A stretch of DNA of 64,000 bases from Geosiphon pyriformis uo1 (lineage: Eukaryota > Fungi > Glomeromycota). Under the pieces are notes generated by a model. It searched no databases and was not told the DNA's origin. It saw nothing but the letters and a program-made list of their open reading frames with translations. This document shows positions 14,435 to 58,147 of the stretch, one piece after another (the first letter of the stretch is position 1; each line of letters begins with the position of its first letter). The stretch spans positions 566,354 to 630,353 of the forward strand of contig JAAOMT010000436.1 in assembly GCA_016748015.1 (NCBI GenBank). The letters run 5' to 3'. A program made the translations under genes and the position numbers.

Positions 14435-15218
14435 TGTTACAGATAATTATTTGAGATCTTAAATCAAATAACAAATCTGTAACTTGATGCTCAATATCTT
14501 GACAATACTGGTTTTACTAGTATGTAAGTTGTATCTGAAGGTTTTTAGAGTTGAGTTCTTTGTATAATAGACAGAGATTTAATGATGATGTAGTTGGTTG
14601 GTAAGTTGTGTTCCCAATTTCTGTTTTCAGCTTGGTGGCCAGTTTATTCTGGCATTCATGCCCTTTTGGTAAACTATCTATTAATATATATATAATTTTA
14701 CTCTTATTTCTGGGTTTTTTACCAGGCTATCTGTGATGTCAATTACTCAGTATTTTAATCCTTAATCAGTTAGTATACAACAATAAAATTAAAGGAAGAA
14801 AGAAATAAAAAAAAATAAAGAAATGAGCCAAGACAATGTGCAAGTTAGAATCTTGTCAATAGCTGTAATCAAGAACTATTGTTCCAGCATGATTAAGTAT
14901 CAATTACTATCAATATAAAGTGTTGATAATAGAGAGTGAATTTGAATAGTAAATAATTTATTTATTTAATATTTGTTGATGGAAGATTTCTAACTAAAGG
15001 ATTCTGCTTTTTTCTACTTTTAACATTATCACTATATATACATAATTGATGTTCTATGAGATTGCTCACATTCCTGAGTGATGTGTTATAATTTCTTGAG
15101 CAATGTGCCATGATTTCTGACATTGCTTCATATTGCTGAACAATGTGCTCATGTGCTAAATACTATTCTCTTATTGGTCTACTATTTTTTTATATCTGTT
15201 TTTTTTTTATAAGTAACA
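14435..15218 (-). repeat. Gypsy-A 3' LTR (784 bp)
   Basis: tgttac...gtaaca; direct repeat of 23627-24510; PPT adjacent. Confidence 0.95.
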
Positions 15219-15231
15219 TTATCTCCTCTTT
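15219..15231 (-). promoter_or_regulatory. Polypurine tract of Gypsy-A (AAAGAGGAGATAA)
   Basis: Purine run directly before the 3' LTR on the coding strand. Confidence 0.85.
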
Positions 15232-15867
15232 TTAATATTGAGCTCCATCAAAATCTTTGTTTTGAATTAATTTTAATACTTCTTTTTCAAGTATTGTTTG
15301 TTCAACTCTGTTTTTCATGTCTTTTACTTGTGTATTGTTCATTTTTCCCCATTAGTTAATGGTTATAGTTTCTATGTCAAAGTGTAACAGTATTTCTGAA
15401 TAATTCTGAAATATGTTGTGTAGTCAATAAATTGTTCTCACATATAGTGTTGAGTTTGTCTTTTTTCCAATAAATTCTTCAATTTGCTGTATTATGTTTT
15501 GGTTAAATACTTTCTTGGATTTGTTGATATACAACTTTTGAATATTCAACTTTCGACCTAATTGGTAGTAACAGTATAATATTGGAAATTGTTCTGTTTA
15601 TTGCTTCCAATTTTCTTTTGTAAGTTTTTCTGTTGGTATCATATTAGATATTTTCCCAAAAGTGTTTTTTACTTTTTTTATTATATTATCTGACCAGTTT
15701 TTATTATTCTTTGGTAACTGCTGATATGGTGTATTCTTTGTCTTTCTTTTGATATTTTGATAGCAAATTGTTTGATTGTTAATGATAATTGTTATGTCTA
15801 AAGGTTGTTAACTTAAGGCCTGGAATAATTGTTGAGCTATAACATGAATATAATCTGGTATTTTCAT
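15232..15867 (-). pseudogene. Gypsy-A ORF3 (accessory ORF in the env position, ~211 aa, four premature stops, no frameshift)
   Basis: Hand translation from ATG 15867: MKIPDYIHVIAQQLFQALS*QPLDITI...EQFPILYCYYQLGRKLNIQKL...GKKTNSTLYVRTIY*LHNIFQ...WGKM. Homologous to Gypsy-B ORF3. Absent from the ORF track. Confidence 0.8.
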
Positions 15868-15985
15868 TTTTTTTTGGTTGTCTTTGTCATGTATACTGTG
15901 TCTTTATATATTCTTTTATTGTTTAATATTACATGTTTGGTCCAATGATTATTATTGGTTTCAGATCTCATAGAATCTTATCTGG

Positions 15986-18900
15986 TTAAACTAGTATTTG
16001 TTGTACTCCCAATTGTGGAATGTTATTGGTAGATAATGATGCTATTTGGTGATATGGTTTTAGTCAATCACTATGTGCTGCTTTAGCTAAGATTTTGTTG
16101 TTCCATCTTAGTTTATAAGCTCCATTTCCAAGAATTTTTTCTATGTAAAATAGTCCATCCCATTTGGAGTCAAATTTTCTATTCCATTGTTTTTCCACTT
16201 TGGTACAATGTAAAAGTACTTTGTCTCCAATCTTGAATTCAACTGGTTTATCTAGTAATTGATTATCATGTCATTCTTTTTGCTTCTTTTGAGACTTTTG
16301 GATGTTATCAACTGCTTTTTGCTATTTATTTTCTAATGTTTCCATTAAGTCATATGTTTTTTTTAGCAATATTTCCTGAAAATTGTCTTCAGTTATTGGT
16401 TCTATTGGATAAGTGGTAACTTCCATCTCAATTGGTAATGTTGCTGTTTTACCATATACTAATTCAAATGGTGTTGCTTATGTAGTGTTTTGCTTCATTG
16501 TCTGATAAGCAAATAATACTAATGGTATGAACAAATTCCATTTGTCCTGATTTTCTTGACTGATCTTGGCGATTGCTTCACACAATGTTCTATTAAATTT
16601 CTCAACTAACTTATTTGTTTGTGAATGATATGGTGATAATAATAGTCTTTTAATTCCAAATCTTTGACTTAATTCTGCTAATATTCTGTTCACAAAGTGA
16701 GTTCCTTAATCTGATAATAGTTCTTTTGGACAACCATGTCAACAAATCAAATCTTGATAAACAAATTTGGCAATGGATTCTGCATCTGTTCTTTGAATGG
16801 CTTTTGCTTCTGGCCATTTAGTGAGATAATCTATGGCTACTGTGATATATCTGTTGTCTCTGCTGATAATTGTTAATGGTCTGACTAAATCAATTCCAAT
16901 GTGATCAAATAGTTGTCCCACTTTGATTGGTCTTAATGGTTCACTTGGTCTTGTTCCATCTCTTCTCTGACAAGTATCACAATTCTGAACATATTGGATG
17001 ATGTCTGGATACATTGATGGCCAATAGTATTTTTTTCTGGTTTTTTCTATGGTTGTTTCTTTATGGAAATGTCCTGCTGTTGGATTTGAGTACATGTTGA
17101 ATAGTATTGTTTCTTTTTTTGATTCTGTAATTACTCTGGTTGGTTGGTCTGGATTTCTTTTGTTTTTCTAATAAAGTATATTTTGATGATTGATGAAATA
17201 TTTTGATTGCTGTTTTATGTTGTTTTGTTTTTTTTGAGATAATTTCTCTTTGAATGATTGAGTATTTATATAATGCTGAAGTTGTTGGTATTTTTGTGTG
17301 TTCATCTTTTGTTATATTTTTGGGTTGAAATGTTATTAGATTTGTCTTATTCATGACAATCCATTAGCATTTCCATTGTCTTTTCTCTTTTATAATGTAC
17401 TGTATAATTAAATGGTAAAAGTTCTATTTTCTATCTGGCATGACAATTGTCTGCAAATTCTTGTTTCTGAATTGAAGTCAATCCTTTGTGATCAGTATGC
17501 ACTTCAAACTTTTGATTCAAGTATTCTTTCCACTTGATAACAACCCAATAGATAGCTAAGTGTTCTAGTGCTGGAGTTTCATAGTTCTTCTCAGCTGGAC
17601 TTAAACTTCTACTGGCATAAGCTACTGGATGCTCTCTTTCATCGGGTCTTTTCTGTGATAGTACTGTTTCCAATGCTTGACCTGATGCATCAGTAGTAAT
17701 GATAAATGATTTGTTGTGATCTGGATACATCAATACTGGAGCTTAGATAAGCTTTTTTCTCAATGTATCGAATGCTTCTTGTTGAGCTTCAGTCCATTCA
17801 TACTTTACATTCTTGGTTTGTAAATAGTGAAGTGGCTGAGCTAGTTTAGAAAAATCCTTGATGAAGTGGTAATAGTAGCCTGCAAATCCCAAAAATACTC
17901 TTAGTTTTGGCAAGTTGGCTGGTACTGGAAAGTTCTTAACTACTTTGATCTTGTCTGGATCTGTTTTGATTCCGTCTTTGCTTACCACATGTCCCAAAAA
18001 CTTGAGTTCAGTTTTTTCAAAGAAACATTTGGTTGCATTTAATTTCAATTCAGCTCTTCTTAACCTTTTGAATACTTGTTGGAGATAATACAGATGATCA
18101 TTAAATGTTTTTGAGAACACATTGGTGTCATCCAAGTATATGACTACTGATTTCCATAGTAGTCCAGTATAAACAATTTCCATAAGCCATTGGAATGTGG
18201 CTGGAGCATTCATCAAGCCAAATGGCATGACTTCAAACTCAAAATTTTCTTCTCTTGTGGTGAATGCTGTTTTTTTTTTGTTGGCTGGATCTATGGCTAC
18301 TTGCCAGTATTCACTATCTAGATCTAATGTTGAAAACCATTTATTTCCTCCAAAAGCATAGAATAGTTCTTGGATCTTGGGGATTGGATAACTATCTCCT
18401 TTGGTTACTCCATTCAGTTTCTGGTAATCTACACAAAAGCGGATTTTTCTATTTTTCTTATGAACTAATACTACTGGTGACAACTATGAACTCATTAATG
18501 GCTGAATTAGCCCGTTGTCAAGCATCCAGTTGATTTCTTGATAAATGATCTTATGGCTAGCTGGTGGTACTTTGTATGCTCTTTGTTTAATTGGCATTGC
18601 ATCACCAGTCTTGATCTAATGCTGGATGATGTTGGTTCAGCCAAATTCATTTTCACTAGCAAAAATGTTATTGAAATTGTTGAGTAACATCTTGAGTTGC
18701 ATCTGTTGAAGTGAATTTAGATTCCCCATGTTCATTTGTTTTAATTGTTCTGGTTAGAGCAGATAACATTTACTTCTTCCATAGATGGTTTGTGATGTAA
18801 TGTCCACATATCTGCAAAGCTGTGGAAAATTTGGAATGTGGTTTGGTAGTTGATCCTCAACTTTGGTGGTTAAATATCCAATGATGGTTCCCTTTGGTAT

Positions 18901-21900
18901 TTCAATGACTTTTCCAGTTGTGTTATAGATAGGAATTTTGATGTTTTTGGGGCTTTTGGCTGATATGTAAAGATTGGTGAGTCCAATCTCCTCTGATTTA
19001 CAAATGATGGCTTCTGCTTCAAATAATTGAGCTTGATTCTTTACTTTTTTTTTTATAGCTAACATATACTGGTCATATAGTGGAATAGAAATTGATTGAT
19101 GAGTTGAGATAATTTCTCTTTTGTCAACAATTTTTTCCTTTGCCATATTAATTGGTATGTCTATTCTACCCATTAATCCAAATCCCTGTATCTTTCTTGC
19201 AGTTATACTTAGTTCTTTCCTTTTTCTCACTGAAACTAACTGAGCTATTTTCACCAGAGATAAGAATATTGTCTGTACTATCTTTTCATTTGGTTCTATA
19301 ATATAGGCCTTTTCTGAATCATTTTGTAGCATGATAATGATATTTTCTATATATCTCGCATCAATTATTCCTCCTTTGATGTTGATTCCTTTTTTCATTA
19401 AACTACTTCTAGATGCTAGTTAAACTATAGTTGTTGTTGGAATTTCCAGAGCTATTTTGAGATCAATACATGTGTATGAATTTGGTTCCAATTTGATGAC
19501 TTCTTTTCCCAGATATCTCAAATCAAACTCTGTATTGGTATCATGTGTGCATTCTGGTATAATACTTTCATTATTATTACTATACCATTTGAGTTCTTGC
19601 TCCTTAGAGAGATCAGAAAGTGCAATGTATATTTTGGAGTTTGAATCAGAGTCTAAATTGTTGATATTTTTGTTGCCATATTGTGCAGAGCTAAAACTAA
19701 TGTTTTTGTTGTTATTGTTATCAGAGTTTGAATCGGGATTGAAAACTGATTCTAATTCTAATACACAGCTGTTGATTAATTCTTCTTCTGGGATCGTGTA
19801 GATCATGTGTGATAGTAGATTGTAAATTAAATCACACTTATTACAATTTTAAAAGTCACAGGGAATTAAGCAATATTGACATAACCGAGTATTCAACTGC
19901 ACTAACCACTGCTCTTGTTTTTCCCTGGTAGGTGCTAGCTCTTGATAATGTTCGTAGAATTGTTCTGGATCTAAGAGATTTATGACTGGTTTTGGGTCTC
20001 AGTCAAGTTCTATAGGTTCAGGTGGGTTATTTTTAATTGTTTTTATTTCTTTTGGAGTCACTCCTTCGATTTTGGTAAGTGCCATTTGCCAAATTTTGTC
20101 ATTGTCATGTGGGCACCTGTTCAAACATTTGATGGCTTGTCTTCAGGCAGTGTTTATGGGCATTTTTTTTCTCACCCAGTTGTTTATAAAAATTGTGTAT
20201 TGACACAATTTGTTGTATGTTTTTCTTCGCCCAAGAATGTTATTCCACATTCCTTTGTTCAGAAAAGTTTTCCACAAGCCAAGCATGGTTCATTGTTCTA
20301 TTTCCCAATCCGTTTTGGCCTTTCAAAGCATTCAATAATGCATGGGTGACAGTAGAATTTCATTGTCAAAGTGTACTCCTTATCGTTGCCACAACAAGCA
20401 CCTATTGATGACAATTTCTTGTCACAATTGATGCATACCAGTTTTGGGCAGCAATAAGTGGATTGGTGGGGTGTAGTGTAGGAATTATAAGTGGGTTTGC
20501 TGTCAGTTGTTGGTTCTTCTTCCTTCCTCTTTCCTTTTCCCTTTTTGTCTTCTTTCTATTTCCAATTTATTTGTTTTTCCTAGTCATTGTCAGTTTTCCA
20601 GGCTTGGTTGGCTTTCCAGGTAAGTTCTTTGCTTTGCTTTCCTTTGCTGTTGTCATCCCACAAAGGTACTGACAGCAGCTTGTTGTGTTCTGTGTTGGTC
20701 CAGAAAACTTGGTAAGCTTCCCAGGTAGGTTTCTTCTCTTCTTTCTCGAATTCAATAAGTGGTGCTGTCAAGTTAATGGATTTAAAATGGCTGTATGTGG
20801 CTGGTATGCATGTGTGTCAACTGTTTTGGCTCAGTTGGAGCTTCTGCATTATCCAGTCCAGTATGGCATTGGTTTTAGATAACCAATTATTCCTTACTAA
20901 TGCCTAATATTGGGTTGCTTCCATCACTAGGACTTTGATGAAAATGATGATGCCATTGACTTTAAAAAAGAAGTTATCAATCTCACCAATAGGAGTTTTG
21001 GTTGCTCCATTGGCAGTTATGATCCTGGTGCTGGCAGTGCAATCAACTCAGCAACTTAATTGGTTCATGAGTTGTTTTGTAATGATGCTGTCAGCTGATC
21101 CACTATTTAAGATCAGTTTAATGGAGTGGCCATCAACTTTGACATTAGTATACATGGCGGTGATTGGTTTGGTGTTAAGAACAGTTCCACTGAATAATAG
21201 AACTGGTGTGGTTTCCTTGAGTTTGAATGGAAAGATGGTGTTCAGTGTTTTGTTCTCAGTAATAGTAGCTAGGAGAATATTGCTGGTAAGTGTTGATTGT
21301 TGTTTGGTTTCCAAATTATTGGGTTGGGCATCTTCTGGGGTAACCAGAATACTTAAATAGTTCTGGGCATTTGAATTCTGGGCATATCCGGTGTCCAAAT
21401 TCTATTGTTAAGATCCTGCTGGTTGTGTGGAAGAACTGAGGATCAGTTGGTGGACTATTATCAACAATTTCCAGCTTTGTTGAGTCAATTTCGGTCTTTG
21501 AGTTCTATTTTAAGGTAAGTTCTGGGGTGGTGTTGGAATTTGTTGGGGCTGATAAATTACCTGCAGCTGATAAATGGATTGTGTTTATAGCTAATAAATT
21601 GTCGGTGTTGTCAGTTGATAAATTGGCACTTGATATACTGGTGGTTGATAAATTGGCTGCTGTGTCATAGATATGTAATTCTGATGGTGTGGCTTTGAGT
21701 TTGGTAGATTATTTGGAATTCAAAACTGGTGATCAAGATTTTGATATTGATTTCTCAATCATTGGTTATTTAAACAATGGCAGCAATTAATTTGTAGATG
21801 TCCTTGTTTACCACAATAGTGACAAACACCCATTTCCTGTTGTCACTGTTGATTGGTTGATGATGATAGACATGACTGATTCTGGAAACAATTTATGTTT

Positions 21901-23563
21901 CCAGAATTATTGCATCATTGTGCTGGTTGATAAATTACACAATTGTCAGCTAAGTATCCCTCTAATTTCTGATTGATGGAATCACTAAATTGTTTCAATT
22001 TGGAATCCAATTCAGATAATCTATTCATTACTAGATTAATGGCTTAACATGGTTGGCTTCTAATTCAGCAGCTTCAAAATCTCTGGCATTTGTGATGACT
22101 GCTTGCAGATTGACAAAATACATTGGACATATGCATTGCAGGATGCTACTGTGTAATCTGTAAATAAACTGATTTAGGATCTGGGCTACTGTGAAGTAAT
22201 TGGCATCAATGGTTTGGATTTGGTGCAGATTCCTGTAGAAGTGTCCTAAGTAAATAGTGACTGCTTCATTTTCTCTTTGTTTGATGATAGTGAAAGTGTT
22301 TATTAGCCTATTAATACTGTTATTATTGCTGAAATATCTTAAGAACTCAATTTTGAATGCATTGAAATCTTGGAGTTTGTTGACTAGGCTTTAATATTAT
22401 GAATTAGTGGTATTCTGAAGAAAATATAAAATGGCTTGTATTGCTCTGGTGTTATTCCATCCATTAGCTGCTATGGCTTTTTCTACATTGTTAAGCCATA
22501 CTTGGGCATTATTCTTTTCGCTGGTGAATTTTTCGAGTTTTGCTATTGGAGCGTAGGCTATTGGATCCAAGTTTGGTTGTTGAAGTTGTTGTTGCAGCTA
22601 TAAAAGTGGCTGCTATGGTAGTTGAAGTGGTTGAAGTGGCTGTTGTTGCTGTTTGTCAATTGGTGGAGCTGAGGTTGGATTGATCACAATTACTGGAGGT
22701 AAGTGTTGTTGATTATTAATGTTGGGGTTTTGATCATTCTGATTGTGCTGTGTTTGAAAATTTGGAGTTTCAATTTCTGGATTTTCTAAATTTAGATTTT
22801 TCTGAGTCTAAAAGTTCGGGGTTTCAATTTTCTGATTTTCAGTGATCAGGTTCTGGTAAGTAAATTCTTGATCTTCAGATTCTTCTTTCTCTTTTTTTTG
22901 GTCTTCTTCTGATTTTGTTACTTCTCAGGAACTTGTGGTTCTGAAATCTGGTTGGAATAGCAGAAATCGGAGCCCTGATGGCATAGACAATCAAAACTTA
23001 AATCCTTTGAAATATGCACCATATAGTCTTAGAAGATCTTCTTTCTTTTGTTTACTCTGAAATGGAAATTGTCCAAAGGTTGATGTCATGTTTAATGTGA
23101 ACACACCTGTTAATGTAATATTGATGGCACTTCTGGGTGTATAATGGTATAATGGATTAGTTGGTGATTTAACTCTTGTTTTCTTCCAAGTAGATGGTTA
23201 TATCCTTTGAGATGTTATTGTTGGTGTTTGTAATTTTCTTTTGTCTTTGTTTGCATAGGTAATTGGATATCTTTGTTGAGTGTGAATTTCAATTTCCTTA
23301 TTGATTTCAGTGAGGATTGCTGTGAAATTATAATTTGTTGGTAAGCTGGTATTTTGGATTAATTTGTTGTAGAAGTTTCCTTTAGCTGAGTTGGTTTCTA
23401 CTAGTACTCCTAGTAAATATGAGATTTTCTTGTGAATGTAGAAATTAAAAGCTGATTCTGCTGATAAGTAATTGTCAGTTAATCTTAAATGTTGACAGTA
23501 ATGTTGAAATAAAGATTTCGCAAATTCTAAATGGTTTGTCCCTGTTTCTTTGGATTCTGTCAT
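15986..23563 (-). pseudogene. Gypsy-A gag-pol polyprotein (gag, CCHC knuckle, aspartic protease, Cys-rich domain, dUTPase, RT, RNase H, integrase)
   Basis: Knuckle VCHYCGKQGHLQINC (~21790-21835); PR ILNSGSADSII (21048-21398); RT RFCVDY...MPFGLMNAPATF...YLDD (17743-18483); RH ITTDASG...YASRSL (17431-17733); IN GHF...YYWP...CDTCQ, DYLTKWPEA (16739-17095); GPY/F-like WDGLFYIEKILGNGAYKL. Confidence 0.93.
19168..19593 (-). pseudogene. dut: dUTPase domain within Gypsy-A Pol
   Basis: Degenerate motifs I-V: EFDL, ASRSSL, GGIIDARY, EKIVQ, RKIQGFGLMG. Confidence 0.88.
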
Positions 23564-23608
23564 TGTTTAAATGGGTGTTATTAGTGCTGATTCTCTGTAG
23601 GATTATAT

Positions 23609-23626
23609 TTCACAGGGAGCACCAAA
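23609..23626 (-). promoter_or_regulatory. Primer-binding site TTTGGTGCTCCCTGTGAA
   Basis: TGG-containing tract 2 nt after the 5' LTR, complementary to a tRNA ending ...GGAGCACCA (elongator Met or Ile-UAU type; identity uncertain). Confidence 0.8.
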
Positions 23627-24510
23627 TGTTACAAATGATTATTTGGGGTCTCAAATCAAATAACAAATCCATAACTTGATGCTCAATATCTTGACAATGC
23701 TGGTTTCACTGGTATTTGGATTGTATCTGAAGGTTTTTAGAGTTAAGTCCTTTGTATAATAAACAGAGATTTAATGATGATGTAGTTGGTTGGTGAGTTG
23801 TGTTCCCAATTTCTGTTTTCAGCTTGGTGGCCAGTTTATTTTGGCATTTGTGCCCTTCTGGTAAGCTATCTGTTAATATATATATAATTTTACCCTTATT
23901 TCTGGGTCTTTTATCAGACTATTCATGATGTCAATTACTCAGCGCTTTAATCTTTAATTAGTTAGTATACAACAATAAAATCAAAAGAAGAAAGAAATAA
24001 AAGAAAATAAAGAAATGAGCCAAGGTGATATGCAAGTTAGTATCTCATTAATAGCTGTGATCAAAAGTTATTGTTCTAGCATGGTTAAGTATTAATTACT
24101 ATTAACATAAAGTGTTAATAGTAAAGAGTAGATTTGGATGGTAAATGATTTATTTATTTAATATTTGTTGATGGAAGATTTCTAACTAAAAGATTCTGTC
24201 TTTTTCTACTTTTAACATTACCACTATATATACATAATTGATGTTCTATGAAATTGCTCACATTCCCGAGTGATATGTTATGATTTCTTAAGCAATGCTC
24301 ACATTGCTGAACAATGTGCCCTAATTTTCTAATATTGCTCCATATTGCTGAGCAATGTGCTGTGTTTTCTGACATTGCTCCACATTGTTGAGCAATGTGC
24401 CATGATTTCTGATATTGCTCCATATTGCTAAGGAATATGCTCATGTGCTAAATACTATTTTCTTATTGGTCTACTATTTTTTTATATCTGTTTTCTTTTT
24501 ATGAGTAACA
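23627..24510 (-). repeat. Gypsy-A 5' LTR (884 bp) with an expanded 40-bp palindromic tandem array at ~24295-24440
   Basis: tgttac...gtaaca; 100 bp longer than the 3' LTR because of extra repeat units. Confidence 0.95.
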
Positions 24511-25565
24511 GCGGAAACATTGATACCATGAACATTACACATCACAAATTTTCAAACAAAATCACTCATTGGGGAGAAAGAGAAGTAGACAATCCCAAAA
24601 CAGAGCACAAATAATCCAATCTTTCCAAGACAAATTCAACTGACACCTCTAAAGCCACCATCTTGGATTCTAATTTACCCATCTTGGTGGTTAAAACTTT
24701 AGAACTACTTGAACTAAGATTAGCAACTGAGTCTGTAATAACAACTGAAAGAGAGAAAAAAGAAGACGCCAGTGTTCTATCTAAAGCCATTTCTAAGTCC
24801 AAATTAGACACTACAGGTGCAAAGACAACCAGAGGAGGGACATGAAAATTGGATGCCAAAAGTACTAATTCCATAAAGCTCAATTTCGTTATAATAGCCA
24901 AAACCTGGTCTGTCAAAAGCTCCAAAGAGCATTCTAGAGAAACCAATTAATCAACCAAGCAGGAATTACCAAGAGAGTTAGAAACCAGCAAGCCAGATTT
25001 AGCACCTGAAAATGAACCAGTACAAAAAGGACCTGACAAAACCACACAAAAAGAATAACTGCTAGCAATCTGTGTCCAAGTCTTTCCACCAAAAGAAACT
25101 GGACAAACAATTGGTGCCTGTTTCTTCTTATATATGTTGGCCAAACAGACCTGATCCTGAGAAATTACCATCTGCTTACCACAAGCACCAGAATTCTCAC
25201 TCAATGAACACACTGTAGAGATATGACCCAATTGTTTACACTTGGTACAACAAGCCAGAGAAAAACCAGCCCAGCACAAATTTACATCTTTATAAACTGG
25301 AATAGAATTAATAGCAGCCAATTTGGATGTTTCATTTTTAAAACAGACCCCTGCATATCTGTTACATACATAAGAACTAGAATTGTGACCAATAAAACAG
25401 GTCTTTTCACCATATGATTCAAGTAAACCAGACAAATCATGAGCAGTGGTACCAATTGGTAAAGTATAGAGCAAACTCCTATGCTGATCCCTAAATATTC
25501 AAAATTGTTTATCTTCAATTGTCAAGACAACTCACACAGAATTCTTTCCCACAAAAACTGACCAT

Positions 25566-26533
25566 TGTTACCAGAGGTTTTTGGGTCTTTTTTCTTCAAT
25601 ATTGTTGATACCTGTTTACTGTGAATTCACGTTTTCTGGATGTGGTTGAACCTCCAGTAACTGAATTTATCTTCAAATTATCTCCTATAATTTGAACTGC
25701 TGGGCTTATAAGTGGAATGGCCAATTTTGTGCCAGTTACTTTGTATAGTTACATTGTAGTAAATGTCAACTCTTTCTCAGGAATTGCTTATCTGAAAGTT
25801 CACTAAAATGTGTAGTTACTTTGCTGTGAAAGTCAACTCTTCTACAGAAATCTTGTCTGTATGCTACTCTAATAATTGTAATAAGAAAATAAAAGAAAAA
25901 TAAAATAAATGTAAAAGAAAAAGTAAAACTGATGATTTATAGAAGTCGTTTTGGATCCAGGCCTGGAAGTGCTTTAACAGTCTTACTGAAATTGGTAGCT
26001 AATCAATTTCAAACTGTTAGTAAGGATTGATTAATTTCAAGAGAAATAATTTAAAAATTTGATTTTTCGAATTATTTGATATTTATTTTGTTTTTGTATG
26101 TAAAGGATGATTCTAATTATTAAATCTGAAGTAAGATACATTTCCTTGAAGAGAGAAGCTCTTCTTTTATACAACTTGTCATAACACTATTCTATGAACT
26201 TAAACTTTGCTATTTTCTATAATTTTGCTGAACTAATGATACATTTCAGCAAACTACAAGTTATTTCTGCAAACTATTAGATATTTCGGCAAATTTCTTA
26301 CAAATTTTGGTGAATTTTTTAAATGTTACATAATTTGGGGTATTGCATGATTGATCATCACAATTAGGTTACATTTGTGTTATGTACAAATTGAGTTATT
26401 AATTAAATGATAATTTCGGATATTTTGCTAATGTAATAAGTGATAATTTGAAATGATAATATATGCTAATTAATGATAAGATTTATAAGAGTAATTTCAT
26501 GCTAAACAATATCTTTAATTTCGTCTGGTAATA
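25566..26533 (-). repeat. Gypsy-B 3' LTR (968 bp)
   Basis: tgttaccaga...tctggtaata, a ~10-bp terminal inverted repeat. TATA-like TATAAAAG on the minus strand at ~26164-26171. Confidence 0.95.
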
Positions 26534-27220
26534 TAACCTCCTCCTCAAGACTGAGCTCTGTCGAAATCCAAGTACTGTCTGTAATTTCCAGATAGTAATC
26601 CAAAATTATTGAAGAAATTTGGTCTAAAAATTGTTGAAATTTCAGTTCTGTGAGCTTTCCAATGTATTGAATCTTCAAAGGCTGTAAAATTGGGTTTTGT
26701 AGAACGTTTTCACAGGTGTGGAATAGGTTATAAAGTCTAAGGGCAGCTCTTAGTTTATAATGACTGTTTGTAGGTCCAGCTGTTGTCTTGAATTCATTGT
26801 GAAATTGTTTCTGAATAGCTTCTTTTGTGAGGTTTGCTGATGTAAGCTCTAGTTTTTGCTCATAAAGTGTTTTTCCAATATAGAAATATCTATATATTGG
26901 GGGGTATTTGTCATTTTCTTCATTAAGACACAGTTGAAGTTTTTGTTGAATAGTAGTATTTAGTAGAATACTAATAGGAGTGAGCAATAAATTTTTTCTT
27001 AAAGCAAGCTTCAAAAGTTTTGGTAAATAAATTTCAGAATAACTTCTTGTGTTCTTCCTATAAAAGTGATACTTTCGTGAATTTGGGGCTAGATTTGTAA
27101 CTATTTCTGTTTGGGTATAATTAATATGTTTTCCAGTAATAGTATGGATAATTCGGGTATTGTTTTTAAAGCTAACATTAGTTTTTGGAATAATTGTTGA
27201 ATGTTTTGAGGAATAGTCAT
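26502..27220 (-). pseudogene. Gypsy-B ORF3 copy 1 (239-aa consensus; 1-bp deletion near 27143)
   Basis: ATG at 27220 (MTIPQNIQQLFQKLMLALKTIPELS). The C-terminal 170 aa are open (26502-27014) and run through the PPT into the LTR. Span is 719 bp versus 720 bp in the second copy. Confidence 0.85.
26534..26546 (-). promoter_or_regulatory. Polypurine tract of Gypsy-B (GAGGAGGAGGTTA), also coding EEEV of ORF3
   Basis: Abuts the 3' LTR; the same tract occurs at 63296-63308. Confidence 0.85.
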
Positions 27221-27344
27221 TATATGAGATTTGAAAATAAAAGAAAATTATTTTTGGTGCATGGGTTTTTATGTTATTTTGTTTTGTTTTTGTGAGATTG
27301 TTTCTAAATTATAAGAAAATAACTATAATAATAAATTTAATTTA

Positions 27345-30300
27345 AGTGTTCAAGTTGGGAGGTTGTTCAATGACAACTATTGGTTCTAAATTCCAGGGAA
27401 TATCTTCAGGATTGATTAAAAAGGAATGTGTGCCAATTTGTGGAATTAATGGTTCGGATTGTTTCTGGAATTATAGTGTTTCAAATAATCTCCATGTGCA
27501 ACTTTTGCTAGGATTTTGTCATCAAGTCTTAGCTTATATGATCTATTGCCTAGAATTTTATGAATAAAAAATGATTCATCTCATTTATTTTCAAATTTTT
27601 CACTCTATTGTTTTTCAGCTTTAGTTCTGTGTAAGAGAACTTTATTTCCAACTTTAAATTCATTGGTAATAGGTGGTAATTTGTTGTCATGTCTTTCTTT
27701 TTGTTAAGCTTGAGAATGTTCAATATGAGTTGCTGCTATTTGTCGTTTTCTTTTCAATGTGCTAAGCAGAGTGTAGGCTCTTCATTGTAGTGTTTCCTGG
27801 AAATTGTTTTTATTAATTGGTTGTGCTAAGTATGTTTCCACTGTGAAACTAATTGGTAATGTTGCTATCCTTCCGTAAGTTAAATCAAATGGTGTGTGTT
27901 TTGTGGTATCTTGTTTTAATGTTCTATATGCTAGTAACACTGATGGAATAAAGATATCTCACTCTTGCTCAAAATCGGTTGAGACTTTGGCTAATGACTC
28001 ACACAATGTTCTGTTAAAACATTCTACAAGTCTGTTTGTTTGTGGATGGTAGAGTGAAGACAGAGGCCTTTTGACATTGAATTGTTCGCAAATTTCTTGT
28101 ATCAGGTTGTTTACAAAGTGTGTTCCTTGATCAGATAAAAGTTTAATTAGACATCCATGTCTACAAATGATGTCTTTGTAGATGAAATTTGCTACTGATT
28201 TTGCATCTGCTCATTGAATGGCTCTGGCTTCGGGCCATTTAGTAAGATAGTCTACAGCTACTGCAATATAATGATTTCCTTGAGTGATAATAGATAGTGG
28301 TCCAACTAAATCGATACCAACTCAGTCAAAGGGTTGTCCAACTTTGATTGGATTTAATGGTTCAGTAGGGTGTGTTTCTTCTCTTCTTTGACAACTATCA
28401 TAAAATTCGACATATTTGTGAATGTCTTTTCTCATTCGAGGCCAAAAGTAGTATTCTAGTGTTCTTTGGGTGGTACTGTTTTTTCCAAAGTGTGCTGATA
28501 AAGGATCTAAGTACATGTTGTATAATATAGTCTCTTTTTCCTGTTCTTGTATTAATCTGGTTTGTCAGGGTTTTTGAAATTTTGATGATAAATAATGTTG
28601 TTGTATAGAAAATATTGTTTGGCTTGTTGTTGTAGTCGATGTTTTTCATCTGGAGACCAATCTATTGGGATTGTTAATGTTTCCAAATATTTTTTGAGAT
28701 TGTTGTAGTTTTCCAAATTCATTGTTTGTTGGCTGTTTTGGTTGGTTAAGTTGAGTGTTGGTTTTTGTGTTTTCTAATCTTGTCTCATTCTGAAGAGACA
28801 ATCAACATTGGTGTGGAGTTTTCCTGGTTTGTGATGTACTATGTATTGATAGTTTGCTAGAAATTCTGTCCATCAGGTTTGTTTTGCATTCAGCTAAGTA
28901 TTTTTGTTCTGAAACCATTTGAATCCAATATTATCAGTGATAATATCGAATTCCTTTGGCTGGAAATAAAGGTTGAAATAATGTAGGGCCCAAATTATGG
29001 CTGCTGTTTCCAATTCAGTGGCAGGATAATTTTTTTCAGCTGGTTTTGATGTTCTGCTAGCATAGACAATTACTTGCTCGTTTTCATTGTCATCCAATTG
29101 TGATAGGATAGCACCAAAGGCAGTATAAAAGGCATCTGTTGCTAATCGGAATTGGTTGCCGAAATCTGGGTAGGCAAGAATTGGAGCTGTCATTAGTTTT
29201 TTTTTGAGGATTTCAAATGCATTTTGGCATTCAGCAGTCCATTTGTATTCGACGTTTTTGGTGGTAAGCTGGTTGAGAGGTTTTGCGATTTCTGAGAATT
29301 TTTTGATAAACTTCTGAAAGTAGGAGGCTAATTCTATGAATCCTCTTAGTTCTGTAGTGTTTTGAAGAATTTTGAAGTTTTTGACAGCACTGATTTTTTC
29401 AGGGTCCGGTTTGATTCCATCTTTACTAATAATATGACCAAGGAAGGCCAAGTTTGTTTTTTCAAAGTAGTATTTTTCAATGTTGAGTTTTAGTCCTGCT
29501 TTTCATAATCGTTAAAAAACTTCTCACAGGTGTTTTAAGTGTAATTTGAACGATGGAGAATAAACATCAGTATTGTCAAGATAAATGACTACTGACTTCT
29601 AAAGGAGTCCTTGGTACACAATATCTATTAATCTCTGAAACATTGCTGGTGCATTGCATAATCCGAAAAGCATTACATTGAACTTGTAATTTCCGCCTTG
29701 GGTGGTGAATGCTGTTTTGGGGCAATCTTTGGAATCCATTGCAACTTGCCAGTAACTGCTTTCTAAATCTAGTGTTGAAAAGTATTTGGATTTTCCAAGG
29801 GCATCTAACATGTCATCAATTCGGGGAAGGGGGTAGGCATCTCCAATTGTAACACTGTTGAGTTGTTGATAGTCAACACAAAATCATATCTTTCCATTTT
29901 TCTTTTTAACTAGCACTACAAGTAAAGCCCAAAGACTTATGGAGGGTTGGATGAGCCCATTGTTAAGCATTCATTGTACTTCTTTTCAGATGAATTGGTG
30001 GCTTTCTAGGACAACTCAATATGCTTGTTGTCTTTTTAGTTTGGCATCTCCTGTATAAATTTGGTGTTAAACCAAATTGGTTCTTCTTAAGTCATTGTTG
30101 TTTTCAGCAAAAATATTGGCAAATTCTGCAATTAGCTCTTTGAGCTGGCTTCATTGTTGTGATTCAAGTTGTCCCATGTTAATTCGAGATAGTTTTTCCA
30201 TACCAACATAGTAGTTTTCAGAGCTAGGGTTTGGATTGATTTTTGATAGTGAATGTCCAATGATTTCCAAAAAATTGGTGACTGTTTGGGGTAATTTTTG

Positions 30301-33300
30301 TTGAAATATATTACTGTGAATAACTCCAATTTCTAAGTTATTTAATAAAACTATGGGGTAATTATTGGGGTTGTAAAAAGTAACTCGGACTTTCTTTGTT
30401 CTTTCTGGAATATAAATGTTTGAGATCAAAATATTATGTTCCAAGCAGACTTGTTTATTGGACTCAAAAATTTGTTGTGTGGTTGTTGGCTTTGGGCAGG
30501 TGTAGATTTTCGGATGTTCTCCAAAGGGTAAGATGGTAATTGGTTGTGGAAGTCTGAGAATCTGATGAGATTCATTCTGTGTGTTAAGAGCTATATTAAC
30601 TGGAACTGTGAATCATCCAGTTGAACCAAAACCTTGGGTTCCTCTATCACTTTTTCCTAATTTTTCTCTTTGATTGACTAGTTGCAAACCTGAAATGTTG
30701 ATTAGAAGTAGGTAAATAGCTTGGGCAATTTTTTCAGCATGGTTGATCTTGAATGGTTTGTTAGTTTCATTTTGAAGCATCACTGTAATGTCTCCAGTAT
30801 ATTCAGCATTGATTATTTCTCCTCTGACATTGATTTTTTTGCTTGCCAAAGAGGACCAGGAGACAATTTGAACCATTGCTCCTAGCGGGATTTCATGTGC
30901 AATTTTGAGGTTGATTTTTGTGAGAGATTTGGGTTTGAGAACAAGAGTATCCTTGTCTGAATATCTTAGGTCATATCCAGCATTAATTTCATGTGCTTTT
31001 TCGGGTTTTATTCCTTGTCCATTGTTGTTGAAGTATTTGAGTTGTAAGGCAGGCTGATTTTTAATAAGATAGATGGGTGTTGTTTCAATTTCTTCCATTG
31101 TTTTAGGTTCTCCAAATTCAATTTTGTTCTCATTACTTTTGCTAGACAAGGGGATTCTAAAAGCATAGCATTCAGGACACCACTGTTCATCACAAGGCAT
31201 AATGCATTTTTCACATAGCCTAATGTTCATTTGTTCTAATTATTGAATTTGAACTTCTTGGGTTGGGTAAGTGTGACTTGCAATTTGGTGGTAGATTTTT
31301 ACTTCATCTTCATAATCAAATCCAGCTAATTCCATGGTGTATTCAATGTATTCTGCTTCCTTCATTTGACAGATATCTTCTTTGGTAGCTTCATTAATTA
31401 ATGCCATTGCTAGGTTAAAAATCATCTCAGCATCATGAGGGTAGTAATAAAGTTTGTTGAGAGCACTGTTGTATGCTGCATTAAAGGGTGTTCCTCTTTT
31501 TACTTTTTCTGAAATTGATAAAGCATATTGGCAGGTCTGATTGCAGACTCCTCTTTTCATTGTTACATCAATCCAATTACATTCTTTCAATAGCATATCT
31601 TTACAAGTTAAACAAAGAGTGTTGTCTTATTTTCCACTTTTTTTTATTAGATGGCTCCATCGTTTTCTGTGGCAAGCCTTGCAGTAGTAACAAGTATGAT
31701 TTTCATATTCTTCTTCAGGTGAAATGCAGGCTCCCATTGATGATAGTTTCTTGTGGCAGTCTTTACATTTAAGGGGAATGTAGAGGCATTGTTTTCTTGG
31801 TTCAGGCTTTAAGTAAGGGATATTCCATCCAGGAGTTTCGGGTTCAGAGTGTGGTGTAAAATGTTCTTGTTCAGTTTTGTCAGCCTAATTAGACGTTGAT
31901 CCAAGAGCCATGAATGTTTTGATTATTGGTTTTTCTTCTTTTGGTTTGAATTCAAAAGCCGGGACTTTTTCGAAGCATTTGTTAAATGTACCACAAGTGG
32001 CAGGTACTTGGGCATGTTGTCTTTGGTAAGAGATTTGTAGTTCTTGGGTTTCCCAGTCTAATTTTGCATTGGCTTTTTGAAGCCAATCATTTTCGACAAG
32101 GGCTTGATACTAGGGAGCATTTATTACAAGAACTTTGACTGAAATGGTGATTCCATCAAGAGTGAATGGAAAATTGTCAATTTCTCCTACTGGAGTCTTT
32201 TTTATGCCATCAGTAGTGACAATTACTGTCTGAGCTGATTGGTTAACATTTTTTTTTAACTGTTGCATCAACTGGTAGGTAATGATGCTTCTGACGGATC
32301 CACTGTCTAGGATCAAGTGAATTGGCTTTTCTTCTGCTTCAGCTTCTGTGTACATTGCAGTGATGGCTTTTTGCTCATTAGCCGCTGCATTGCTAAGCAA
32401 GAATGGTGATTCATTTGCTTCAAATTCAAAGGGGAATATATCTGAAAAGTTGGCATTTTCAGCAATTCTGGCTGGTGGGATTGTGATAGGAGTATAGGAA
32501 GAGTTTTGTTGTTGTGCTGCAGCTCTACCTTCCAAGAGTGCAGTATAGTGAAAATTCTGTTCTTTAGGTATTGTTAAATAACTGGGTTGAGTGTGATAGT
32601 GGTTGGGTCTTGGTTGAGCAGAATTTTGGGGAACCAGTTGGTTGTTTGAACTGATTCTATTGTTGTTTACTTGGTATCGGTTTTGTGATGTGAATTGGTT
32701 TTGTGGAGTCAATTTTCGAGCAGGTACTTGGTAATGTTGTGTGGGTGGTTGTTGGTATTGCTGTTGGATCAGCTGTGGGATGGGCTGATAATAGTTACTT
32801 TGGTATTGGGGTCTTGGTGGATAGTAAGCTGGTACTGGTGGTGGATAATAAGATTGTTGTGGTGGAGGGTAACGTTGATTACTCCTATTTTGTTGATTTC
32901 ATTGTAACTTTCTGCAATCTTTTTTTCAGTGGCCAGAGATTTCACAGTAATGGCAATTCTAGGCTGGTTATTAGAAAGTGGTGCAGAGTTATTTTGATTT
33001 CATCTTTGGGGAGTTTAATATCTTTGGGTTTGCTGTTATTGATTGGTAAAATAGCTTTCAACCTTCTTTGTCAGTTGGTCAATTTTCTCTTCAGCTACTG
33101 AGCTGGTTTCTTCAATTGCCAAATTTACAAGTTTTGTGTGATTGGTTTCTTCCATAGCCATTTCATATCTTTTTGCATGCTGTATGGCAGAGTTTAAATC
33201 TTTTGGGGCATGTGGGCGAACTTTTTTAATCAGTTTATCTTTTAGACCAGCGATAAATTAATCCAAGATTTGAGTGTCAGAATAATAATCATTAGTTTCA

Positions 33301-33413
33301 AGTTGGCGAATTTGTCTGAGAAGTTTGTTGAATTTTCTAATATAAGTCATGACAGATTCGGAGGGTTCTTGTTTAATATTTCAAAAACGATTGCAAAGAG
33401 TGATGGAGGTATT
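27345..33413 (-). pseudogene. Gypsy-B gag-pol (gag C-terminal half, CCHC knuckle, protease, Cys-rich domain, dUTPase, RT, RNase H, integrase)
   Basis: Knuckle NCHYCEISGH*KKDC (~32915-32960); PR ILDSGS (32110-32712); RT FSTLDL...FGLCNAPAMF (29599-29811); RH LATDAF...YASRT (28894-29451); IN HFGK...YFWP (28322-28516). Confidence 0.92.
30616..31041 (-). pseudogene. dut: dUTPase domain within Gypsy-B Pol
   Basis: Motifs AGYDL, SWSSL (RSS), EIINAEYTGDI, EKIAQ, DRGTQGFGSTG. The TGA that follows is probably CGA>TGA, since the frame continues. Confidence 0.92.
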
Positions 33414-33432
33414 AGATGTGTATAAGAGACAG
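33414..33432 (+). other. Tn5 mosaic end / Nextera adapter AGATGTGTATAAGAGACAG (probable assembly artefact)
   Basis: Exact 19/19 match to the synthetic mosaic end, at the point where gag is cut and joined to atgc plus the LTR. Confidence 0.95.
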
Positions 33433-33436
33433 ATGC

Positions 33437-34390
33437 TGTTATCGGAGGTTTTTGGTCTCTTTTCTTCAATGTTGTTGATACCTGTTTGCTGTGAATTCAC
33501 GTTTTTGGGTGTGGTTGAACCTCCAGTAACTGAATTTATTTTCAAATTATCTCCTATAATTTGAACTGCTGGAATGGCCAATTTTGTGCCAGTTACTTTG
33601 TATAGTTACATTGTAGTAAACATCAACTCTTTCCCAGGAATTGCTTATCTGAAAGCTCACTAAAATGTGTAGTTACTTTGCTGTGAAAGTCAACTCTTCT
33701 ACAGAAATCTTGTCTGTATGCTACTCTAATGATTATAATAAGAAAATAAAAGAAAAATAAAAGAAATGTAAAAGAAAAAGTAAAACTGATAATTTATGGA
33801 AGTCATTTCGGATCCAGGCCTGGAAGTGCTTTAACAGTTTTACTGAAATTGGTAGCTAATCAATTTCAAACTGTTAGTAAGGATTGGTTAATTTCAAGGG
33901 AAATAATTTAAAAATTTGATTTTTCGAATTATTTGATATTTATTTTGTTTTTGTATATAAAGGATAATTCTAATTATTAAATCTGAAGTAAGATACATTT
34001 TCTCGAAGAGAAAAGCTCTTCTTTTATACAACTTGTCGTAACATTATTCTATAAACTTGAACTTTGCTATTTTCTATAATTTTGTTGAACTAATGATACA
34101 TTTCAGCAAACTACAAGTTATTTCTGCAAACTATTAAATATTTTGGCAAATTTTTTACAAATTTCAGCAAACTTTTTGAATGTTACATAGTTTGGGGTAT
34201 TGCATAATTGATTATCGCAATTAGGTTACATTTGTGTTATGTACAAATTAGATTATTAATTAAATGATAATTTCGGATATTTTGCTAATGTAATAAGTAA
34301 TAATTTGAAATGATAATATATGCTAATTAATAATAATATTTATAAGGATAATTTCATGCTAAACAATATCTCTAATTTCGTCTGGTAACA
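33437..34390 (-). repeat. Gypsy-B 5' LTR (954 bp)
   Basis: tgttatcgga...tctggtaaca; direct repeat of 25566-26533. Confidence 0.93.
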
Positions 34391-35945
34391 CCATTTAGAA
34401 GCAACTGAACTAGCTACTTCAGATGATTCATATTTGACCAAAGCTTTTTGCCACAAGCCAATCAATTGCATCTTAATTGACACAATTTTTTCAAACTTAG
34501 AAAACACAAATTCCACAGCCAATTTGGAAAAATCAACTGGGATCTTCTTAATGATCACTTTCCAATCTGAACAACTGTTTACTTTCCTTATCTCATCATT
34601 GACAAAAATTTTCTCACAGATTGCTATTTCTTTAGCCTTATTCAAGTTCAATTTCGAAGTAAATGAAGATCTGATGATCCCTGGAAATTTTGAGAGAGCA
34701 GAGGCTTCTCCAAAACCATCAACTCAATAAAAAATTTTTTTTATTGAAATCAATTTGTCACTAACAGATTTTCCTGGAATAGCCAAAAGCTCAATATCTA
34801 GCATAAAAGATTTTACTGGCTTGAAGTTTCTTTTTTCCAAAACACGTGACTTGAAACTTGGCAGCTGATTAAAATTTTTAAACTTAGGAAGTGGAACAGC
34901 CACCATATTCTCATCACCACTCAAAACATCAAACAAAGGAGGTTTCGAAGGTTGACCTAATACATACATACAAGTGTGTGTTTTTCTGGACGTGGTATTG
35001 TCTTCCATGCCATCAATTACTGAATTGTCCAAGTTAGTGTAACTAGTTTCTTCAGCAACAGTATTTTTTATGTTTTCTAAGTCTGACAGGCCACCCATGC
35101 TATTTGCTTTGCTTTCTATTTCACTGCCCCAAGATTTTGAAAACTTACTGTCAATGACACCAATATTAGCCAGGCCCAACAGTCTAGCAGACAAGTCAAC
35201 CACACTGACTCCAACTTTAGAATTTCTTGGCTTCTTGTAAGATGCACTGCATGAGTACACACTATTTACTCTTTTTTTTTCATATCAGGCTGGTTCCCCA
35301 ATTTAGCAGAAGTAGATCCAGAGCCACCAACAATAGGATTTGCCAGTTCTATGTTCACAAATAAAGGTACATCTGAAGAAATAGTTAAAATACGAAAAGA
35401 ATAAGGAGTAAGAGAAACTTTTTCTTCGATAATATTTTGCTCTCGTTGTGACCAGGGGATCAACAAAAAAAAGTCTTTTTTTTTTTTTTTATGTTTTTTC
35501 AGCTACTATTACAAATTTAATATCTAAAATAAAAAACTTAACTGAATTAAAACATTTTTTTTCTTTGATTAAAATATTAAATTATATAATAAAAACAACA
35601 AAAACAAATAACAAAAGATTAAAAATATTATTATTATTTAAAAAATCAAAAAATAACTTTTTAAGTAGTTTATTTAAGCTATAAATTTTAGTACATATGT
35701 TTTATAATATAGTCTTATTTATATATTTACTATTACTAAAGTTATTTAAGTTAACAAAGCTAGTTTTTTTATTATCATATTTTTTAAATTCTTAATATTA
35801 GAAAAAGAACTTTTTTCTCTTTTTTGTCCAAAATTCCCAAAAAAGAGTCAAAAGTTTTTTTAAAAGAAGTTTTTTTACCATTCAGTACAATAAATCAAAA
35901 CTGTTCTTCGATTACGAGGCCACTGTTGGCTCTGTTATTGCTGTT

Positions 35946-58001: not shown

Positions 58002-58147
58002 ATTTTTTTTGGTTTAAATTCTGGTTTTTTAATATTTATATATCAAATATAAAATTACTTAATTAAAATAAAACCAATTTTTTTGAGTCTAATATAAATT
58101 ATTTTATATATATTATACAAAAAAATAGGTTTTTGTGTTTTATCTGG

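Follow-up and report, generated by a model that had tools for sequence, protein, structure and literature searches.

An accessory gene between a separate integrase and the polypurine tract of Ty3/Gypsy retrotransposons in Geosiphon pyriformis

The accessory gene and its distribution

The 64,000-nt stretch of the Geosiphon pyriformis uo1 genome analysed here (contig JAAOMT010000436.1, positions 566,354 to 630,353; referred to as the window and numbered from its first nucleotide) is a stack of decayed retroelements nested in one another. An earlier note on this DNA had drawn attention to a separate open reading frame (ORF) behind the integrase in two of the retroelement families, A and B, represented by element A (14435–24510, minus strand), element B1 (25566–34390, minus strand) and element B2, which is truncated by the end of the window. 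Based on Pfam and tblastn matches, both families display the protease, reverse transcriptase (RT), RNase H (RH), integrase domain order of Ty3/Gypsy elements, and their carriers feature paired TG...CA long terminal repeats (LTRs), a target-site duplication and a polypurine tract (PPT). The accessory ORF and its immediate surroundings comprise the following features:

26502–27220, minus strand: accessory ORF of B1, dead through a 1-nt deletion near 27144, about 76 nt past the ATG
63264–63983, minus strand: accessory ORF of B2, dead through a TGA at codon 49
15232–15867, minus strand: accessory ORF of A, dead through four internal stops, with a terminal TAA; its GAQY-stop precedes the PPT
26610–26900 (approximate limits), minus strand: conserved helical core of the B1 ORF (Y-x-Y-x-x-[IL]-G ... 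G-K-T-N ... R-[LI]-Y-x-x-F ... LL), with a putative helix-turn-helix (HTH)-like role
26537–26559, minus strand: GGAGCTCA-type motif and PPT of B1, translated as ELSLEEE
63299–63321, minus strand: GGAGCTCA motif and PPT of B2
15222–15246, minus strand: GGAGCTCA motif, ORF stop and PPT of A
27221–27341, minus strand: AT-rich spacer (17% GC) from integrase stop to accessory ATG, B1
15868–15928, minus strand: AT-rich spacer before the accessory ATG, A

The two B copies are ATG-started, homologous frames (636 of 719 aligned bases identical) with distinct single lesions, from which the earlier note had deduced an intact protein of 239 amino acids (aa). Such proteins exist in nature, as 23 of the 120 listed homologues are 239 aa long and match at 99–100% query coverage, so that a consensus did not need to be reconstructed. 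The homologue at the same position in A is likewise present with a broken frame, and a natural intact A-family protein is available (P0125, 211 aa, 76% identical).

The proposed homology between the A and B frames held against shuffled controls, with a local score of 103 versus a shuffle maximum of 76. None of 2000 shuffles reached this score, including when residues were shuffled within 10-residue windows; the outcome was 0/2000 in each of four full-length pairings and 12/2000 with the partial protein P0126. An intact copy was found on a metagenomic contig of a related lineage, M1 (contig L001), which carries RT-RNase H, a stop, an integrase interrupted by one internal stop, a spacer of 316 nt (23% GC), an intact 230-aa accessory ORF, the PPT and an LTR. 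The accessory frame on this contig contains no stop in 230 codons, while its shuffles averaged 18 and never held fewer than 8 (n=2000).

Comparison of B1 with B2 yielded a dN of 0.083 and a dS of 0.382 (dN/dS ~0.2, far below 1), a pN/pS of 0.26 (bootstrap 0.18–0.38) and 27, 13 and 39 differences at codon positions 1, 2 and 3, respectively. Because transition bias can mimic a low dN/dS, we ran a neutral simulation in which the same 80 base changes were scattered over random matching sites (5000 runs). None of these runs came down to the 36 amino-acid changes observed (mean 49.7), and 13 attained the 39 changes observed at third positions. Between families dS was 1.5–2.1, which is near saturation. 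The L001 and B accessory ORFs share 29–33% identity versus 54–55% for RT-RH and integrase, and in the L001 comparison the accessory ORF (dN 0.72) changed about twice as fast as the integrase (dN 0.31), being the fastest gene compared. We have hardly any doubt that the accessory gene is real, protein-coding and old.

The 120 best-listed homologues were all G. pyriformis gene models (63–94% identity), each annotated as a hypothetical protein. A profile search of 1.84 billion representatives retrieved 73 proteins at E≤0.001, and the 20 of these that were looked up were 17 G. pyriformis models and 3 metagenomic proteins. Altogether, the gene is present in at least six Geosiphon lineages (B, B′, A, C, D and E) and three metagenomic ones (M1, M2 and R), with full-length open frames of 211–245 aa and a core identity of 15–40% among the nine, except for B and B′ (74%). 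The view that a mostly helical, non-Env protein under selection had been retained since families A and B diverged was borne out, retention being in fact much wider. A tree divided the lineages into two clades, B/B′/M1/M2/R and A/C/D/E, a split that is provisional because long branches meet there. The position of the ORF after the integrase was seen in A, in B and on contig L001, and among 201 gene models examined 13 included an integrase piece, which was N-terminal to the accessory ORF in 12 (families B, C and E). Searches of viral contigs, prokaryotic genomes and phages revealed no relatives, and a plasmid search only six weak rows (E 2). The metagenomic proteins include a remote lineage (P0197 and P0202–P0205; 15–23% core identity to the others, 233 aa at full length, ending SQVLNS), located on contigs of less than 1.5 kb.

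All elements share the GGAGCTCA motif, then the PPT and then TGTTAC at their 3′ end, which is read in different frames. In B, B′ and the metagenomic lineages M1 and M2 the shared motif is read as ELxLEEE-x-MLP, and the proteins end a few codons inside the U3 region of the LTR, with unrelated tails. As the earlier note had described for B, EEEV is encoded over the PPT (GAGGAGGAGG) and the tail by U3; the tail it quoted is that of B2, while B1 ends EEEVILPDEIKDIV. In A, C and E, by contrast, the motif is read in another frame as GAQ[YF]-stop, before the PPT. The earlier claim that in both families the ORF crosses the PPT and enters the 3′ LTR consequently stands for B, where the overlap amounts to the last 32 nt of 720 (LTR starts at 26533 and 63295), and fails for A, which stops at 15234–15232 (...GAQY-TAA), 14 nt short of the LTR (15218). 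An A frame continuing across the PPT was ruled out, since natural A-family proteins end at GAQY: this holds for all A-search matches that reach the C-terminus (P0125–P0127; 3 of 8).

On this showing, the overlap results from the frame in which one subclade reads the shared motif and is not a conserved trait akin to that of nef. The frame of subclade B crosses the PPT into U3 as that of lentiviral Nef does, but the likeness suggested earlier goes little further, the overlap being only 32 nt in B and absent in A, C and E, and the B and B′ tails being different. Nef has a large U3 overlap and an N-terminal Met-Gly myristoylation site. The accessory proteins begin with MTIP, MEIP, MEQT, MDTT, MILI or MEIT and thus lack the Met-Gly of Nef, to which they show no fold match either.

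Carrier elements and the separate integrase

The remaining features of the carriers and their relatives are as follows:

25566–26533, minus strand: 3′ LTR of B1, sharing 32 nt with the accessory ORF
33437–34390, minus strand: 5′ LTR of B1, 94% identical to the B1 3′ LTR
62318–63295, minus strand: 3′ LTR of B2
14435–15218, minus strand: 3′ LTR of A
23627–24510, minus strand: 5′ LTR of A, with a TGG-type primer-binding site after it
51617–52629, minus strand: solo LTR of sister subfamily B′, the beginning of which codes for the tail MLPVEF of B′ proteins
28897–32895, minus strand: pol region of B1 (Pfam: protease, dUTPase and RNase H; tblastn with L001: RT)
17434–19419, minus strand: pol region of A (dUTPase, RT, RNase H)
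27342–28722, minus strand: integrase of B1, an ATG-started ORF of its own, decayed
15929–17305, minus strand: integrase of A, an ATG-started ORF of its own, decayed
28723–28776, minus strand: RNase H stop, then 51 nt of A/C-rich leader up to the integrase ATG, B1
17306–17338, minus strand: RNase H stop and leader before the integrase ATG, A
L001 772–798: RNase H stop and leader before the integrase ATG

Both families carry a dUTPase between protease and RT (Pfam; 30616–31005 in B and 19177–19416 in A, both minus strand), as was already known from other fungal Gypsy elements (PMC2864245, PMC6431247). A and B1 match L001 at about 54% identity in pol, and in all three the integrase is a separate cistron, with its own ATG 24–51 nt after the RNase H stop, so that the label "third ORF" given to the accessory gene in the earlier note may undercount. 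The accessory gene lies on the sense strand of a dUTPase-carrying Ty3/Gypsy clade, between this separate integrase and the PPT.

The integrase leaders are A/C-rich and unstructured, and an AT-rich spacer of 61–316 nt precedes the accessory ORF. Start-codon leaders are G-poor, falling within the lowest 5% of windows for four of six start codons, which is suggestive. TATA-like words before the ATG were discarded as evidence, as spacers this rich in AT should contain about one by chance alone (hand estimate).

The two LTRs are 94% identical in B1, which is flanked by a 4-bp duplication, and 90% identical in A. A primer-binding site was seen in A only; in B1 an adapter-like sequence stands in its place. 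This 19-mer (33414–33432, minus strand), which we take to match the Tn5/Nextera mosaic end, begins 4 nt after the 5′ LTR, after which the sequence jumps to mid-gag. The lack of primer-binding site, leader and gag start at this junction is probably an assembly artefact.

The target duplications read ATGG/ATGG for B1 (25566–34390), ATGG/ATGG for the B′ solo LTR (51617–52629) and CCGC/CCAC for A (14435–24510), and all three are compatible with decayed, CpG-centred NCGN sites. The insertion site of B1 is a copy of another repeat (24547–25566 and 34392–35610), colinear with 55875–58127. Neighbouring repeats contain APE endonuclease, RT and RNase H domains, resembling long interspersed elements, and their coding strands are T-rich. 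At 43609–44074 lies an additional, 69% similar relative of the A-type LTR, for which the family-profile search revealed no linked accessory ORF.

Predicted structure and candidate binding sites

An AlphaFold2 model of protein P0162, built from 68 sequences, had a mean predicted local distance difference test score (pLDDT) of 82, with most of the core above 90. Its N-terminal part consists of a helix (residues 7–21), two strands and a disordered basic linker (40–50; PY-x-x-K-x-K), and is followed by helices 54–66 and 82–95, core helices 100–119, 126–141 and 146–160, and finally a long C-terminal helix. Among the residues conserved between lineages are Y102, G108, L111, G142-K-T-N145, R155, Y157, F160 and L167. 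The protein is thus predicted to fold into an N-terminal helix with a β-hairpin, a flexible basic linker and a compact helical core, in which two central helices linked by G-K-T-N and then R-[LI]-Y-x-x-F would form an HTH-like arrangement. In line with the earlier note, hydropathy (the only measure used) indicated no transmembrane stretch, the best 19-residue value being 0.44–1.14 in all four proteins examined. The isoelectric point is 7.0–7.7 for B proteins and 9.3 for A.

The searches made yielded no match to an Env or to a characterised host gene. No Pfam family scored above its cut-off (with none at all for P0001 and P0006), PHROGs returned only scattered matches, in no more than 3 of 21 members (best E 0.0012), Foldseek found nothing in PDB or BFVD at E≤0.001, and VIA structural searches gave no clear fold match (best Z 4.8, to a designed protein, and 3.4). 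Neither Foldseek nor VIA gave a significant row that would bear on an Env fusion-protein fold. A PDB sequence match of P0006 to FtsQ (E 0.04) was rejected, as the 68-sequence profile gave none at E≤10. The nearest ESM Atlas cluster was a 190-aa Mucoromycota family (score 0.94, 176/256 features), recognised below the threshold of the tool. A first, low-confidence model (pLDDT 45) had a best structural Z of 6.4. The confident model without a significant fold match does not imply a new fold, as its N-terminal α/β part was not folded alone.

The pattern Y-x-I-G / G-K / R-x-Y-x-x-F is reminiscent of DUF1016_N (PF17761, the N-terminus of Escherichia coli YhcG). In hhalign comparisons with up to 88 DUF1016 sequences, four of five aligned exactly the Y-x-I-G...F stretch (60–65 columns, probability 8.6–27.7%, E 0.0006–0.004), which brings Y-x-I-G, G-K and R-x-x-Y-x-x-F into register along three helices. 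This alignment beat its reversed control, and none of 120 column shuffles reached its score. Likeness to the DNA-binding domains of the ParB family, including KorB, comes from weak structural rows (Z 3.3–3.8, rmsd 3.1–5.2), such as Spo0J (1vz0: Z 3.8, rmsd 5.2, 92 residues aligned) and KorB (1r71: Z 3.4, rmsd 4.5, 88 aligned). Both resemblances remain far below family thresholds, and the accessory protein differs in having no nuclease domain, an extra N-terminal α/β part and a long C-terminal helix. DUF1016_N was absent among the best 25 of 39 Pfam families retrieved for 21 members at E≤1, and we regard the sequence resemblance as a weak lead rather than as family membership.

Each LTR family was found to carry its own repeated 10-mer, present in 3–5 copies versus 2–3 in eight controls per LTR, and in no copy in the LTRs of other families. 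The motif is TTYGCCGAAA with a 20-nt spacing in the U3 of B and B′, and TTGCCCTAG in that of M1. Two arrays of candidate sites are present in the window:

24292–24440, minus strand: near-palindrome array of CATTGCT-C-AGCAATG type with a 40-nt period in the U3 of the A 5′ LTR, possibly binding sites
~52349–52424, minus strand: repeated TTCGCCGAA near-palindromes in the B′ solo LTR

When one mismatch is tolerated, the TTTGCCCT(AG) motif repeated in the M1-element U3 also recurs once in the spacer that leads up to the accessory ATG (L001 2140–2455; L002 30–768), which would fit autoregulation via an internal promoter.

CpG was strongly depleted throughout, with an observed/expected ratio of 0.19 for the whole window, 0.21 for L001 and 0.11–0.27 for the elements, and TpG/CpA was in excess in the whole window (1.25). 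In a related fungus, transposable elements (TEs) are methylated at CG (10.1101/2021.03.30.436303).

Possible functions and comparison with known systems

These observations might indicate that the accessory protein is a soluble, helical, HTH-like DNA-binding regulator of the LTR of its own family, a reading to which we assign a probability of roughly 0.4. The nucleic-acid-binding transactivator or anti-silencing factor proposed in the earlier note is thus still the likeliest guess, albeit one from weak leads. Its message would be subgenomic or internally initiated, behind the AT-rich, G-poor spacer, and the protein would enter the nucleus and bind, probably as a dimer, family-specific near-palindromes in its own U3. 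Once bound, it would raise transcription or keep CpG methylation off the LTR, comparable to Tas of foamy viruses or VANC of Arabidopsis. A different ORF with a different U3 motif in each family would be expected, because protein and target motif would diverge together.

Several points weigh against such a regulator. The fifth hhalign comparison (alignment A2) had a probability of 1% and aligned a different region, and DUF1016_N scored 8–13.5 bits (HMMER, own profiles) versus a Pfam gathering cut-off of 32.8. The shuffle controls are moreover not independent, because the family was chosen after the motif had been seen, and confirmation that DUF1016_N contains an HTH did not turn up in the literature search. 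The ParB rows lie within the noise (best Z overall 4.8, for a designed protein), and B proteins are not basic, only A being so. Palindromes were clearly in excess over shuffles in two of seven LTRs only (0/300 controls), marginally so in three (17–31/300) and not in two, and internal coding windows reach 4 palindromes per 450 nt. Finally, U3 repeats are often bound by host factors, the B motif presumably resembles an E2F site, and the U3 motifs could just as well be read by transcription factors of the host.

In its fullest form, the regulator would belong to an ancient fungal Gypsy clade with a complex-retrovirus-like polycistronic genome (gag-pro-dut-RT-RH, integrase, accessory gene); as a remote kin of DUF1016_N and ParB, it would read U3 palindromes to activate the LTR or block methylation, in a repressor/operator-like circuit co-diverging by family. 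We consider this complete scheme unlikely.

Alternatively, the protein might act at the level of RNA or particle, binding element RNA or host silencing proteins (as an RNAi suppressor or in Rev-like export of the unspliced polycistronic RNA) or aiding nuclear import of the pre-integration complex. Selection, fast change and the lack of a transmembrane segment fit such a factor equally well, and RNA handling becomes necessary in a polycistronic element. Small RNAs of TEs are described in a related fungus (10.1101/2021.03.30.436303), and nuclear-import roles have been proposed for additional ORFs (aORFs) of plants (PMC7264820). The low-confidence first model bore a weak likeness to the RNA-binding domain of influenza NS1 (Z 5.6, rmsd 4.9), but NS1 was not among the best 50 rows for the better model, and an RNA or particle factor would leave the DUF1016_N alignment at G-K-T-N / R-x-Y-x-x-F and the family-specific U3 arrays unexplained. 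We find this alternative somewhat doubtful.

The constant position of the accessory ORF after a separate integrase ORF could also point towards an integrase cofactor that replaces a chromodomain, none being listed by Pfam in the L001 integrase tail, and that steers the integrase to CpG-centred targets, with which the decayed 4-bp duplications (ATGG, ATGG, CCGC/CCAC) are compatible. However, a shared target preference predicts a conserved cofactor, yet this ORF changes fastest, which makes this role improbable.

Even less probable is that the frame is a captured host-gene fragment or a hitch-hiker with no role for the element, running over the PPT through conservation of the cis-sequence. The GGAGCTCA-PPT-LTR sequence does fix the ELxLEEEIMLP tail, and the Mucoromycota cluster in the ESM Atlas, a weak match, could be a host family. 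Purifying selection between copies, and open frames of 211–245 aa at 15–40% core identity in nine lineages, nevertheless speak against a gene without function; host capture is possible as an origin, while lack of function is not plausible. Least probable of all is a protein of Env or movement type that would carry the element from one nucleus, hypha or partner cell to another, as the env position and sense orientation (PMC7264820) are accompanied by a hydropathy profile without a hydrophobic signal or transmembrane stretch and by the predicted structure of a small soluble helical protein.

Among known systems, the accessory ORF belongs to the sense additional ORFs between pol and 3′ LTR (aORF-3S), with which it shares orientation, position between integrase and 3′ LTR, many copies, cross-family conservation and a function that is not known (PMC7264820). 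Those covered in that review are mostly env-like, with transmembrane segments, from plants and insects, whereas the Geosiphon ORF comes from a fungus, encodes a soluble protein that matches neither a Pfam family nor a fold, and is placed after a separate integrase. Maize Grande gene23 and other antisense aORF-3R likewise lie in the 3′ internal region, and a nuclear, regulatory role and an own promoter have been proposed or described for them (PMC7264820), but they are antisense and the Geosiphon ORF is sense.

The proposed mode of action is that of foamy-virus Tas, whose gene has a 3′ position beside the LTR. Tas is a retroelement protein that binds its LTR and internal promoter and raises transcription (PMC4929722, PMC8670036), although it belongs to another host kingdom and no sequence or fold match to it was found. 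VANC of Arabidopsis VANDAL is a TE-encoded accessory protein acting family-specifically via a short repeated motif, in a host that methylates TEs (PMC6719617); VANDAL elements are DNA transposons, and any likeness would be one of mode.

A survey of fungal Gypsy elements reports the dUTPase position found in A and B and marks, in a figure legend, an "additional ORF with unknown function"; none of the 25 fungal genomes in its table is from the Glomeromycotina, and its section 5 does not mention a separate integrase ORF (PMC2864245). Our literature search, with supplements outside its scope, found no description of the accessory ORF, and this protein family of fungal Gypsy elements was previously unnamed.

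LTR elements make up 41.2% of the G. pyriformis genome (PMC11952901), and at least six of its Gypsy lineages carry the accessory gene. Recognising the family cleans up the gene catalogue, because copies are annotated as anonymous hypothetical proteins. The review of additional ORFs leaves their role in LTR retrotransposons open (PMC7264820), and here function is directly testable because the gene family has a long history, includes intact members, has a confidently modelled product and comes with visible candidate sites. If the protein counters silencing, it would help to explain LTR expansion in a CpG-methylating fungal lineage.

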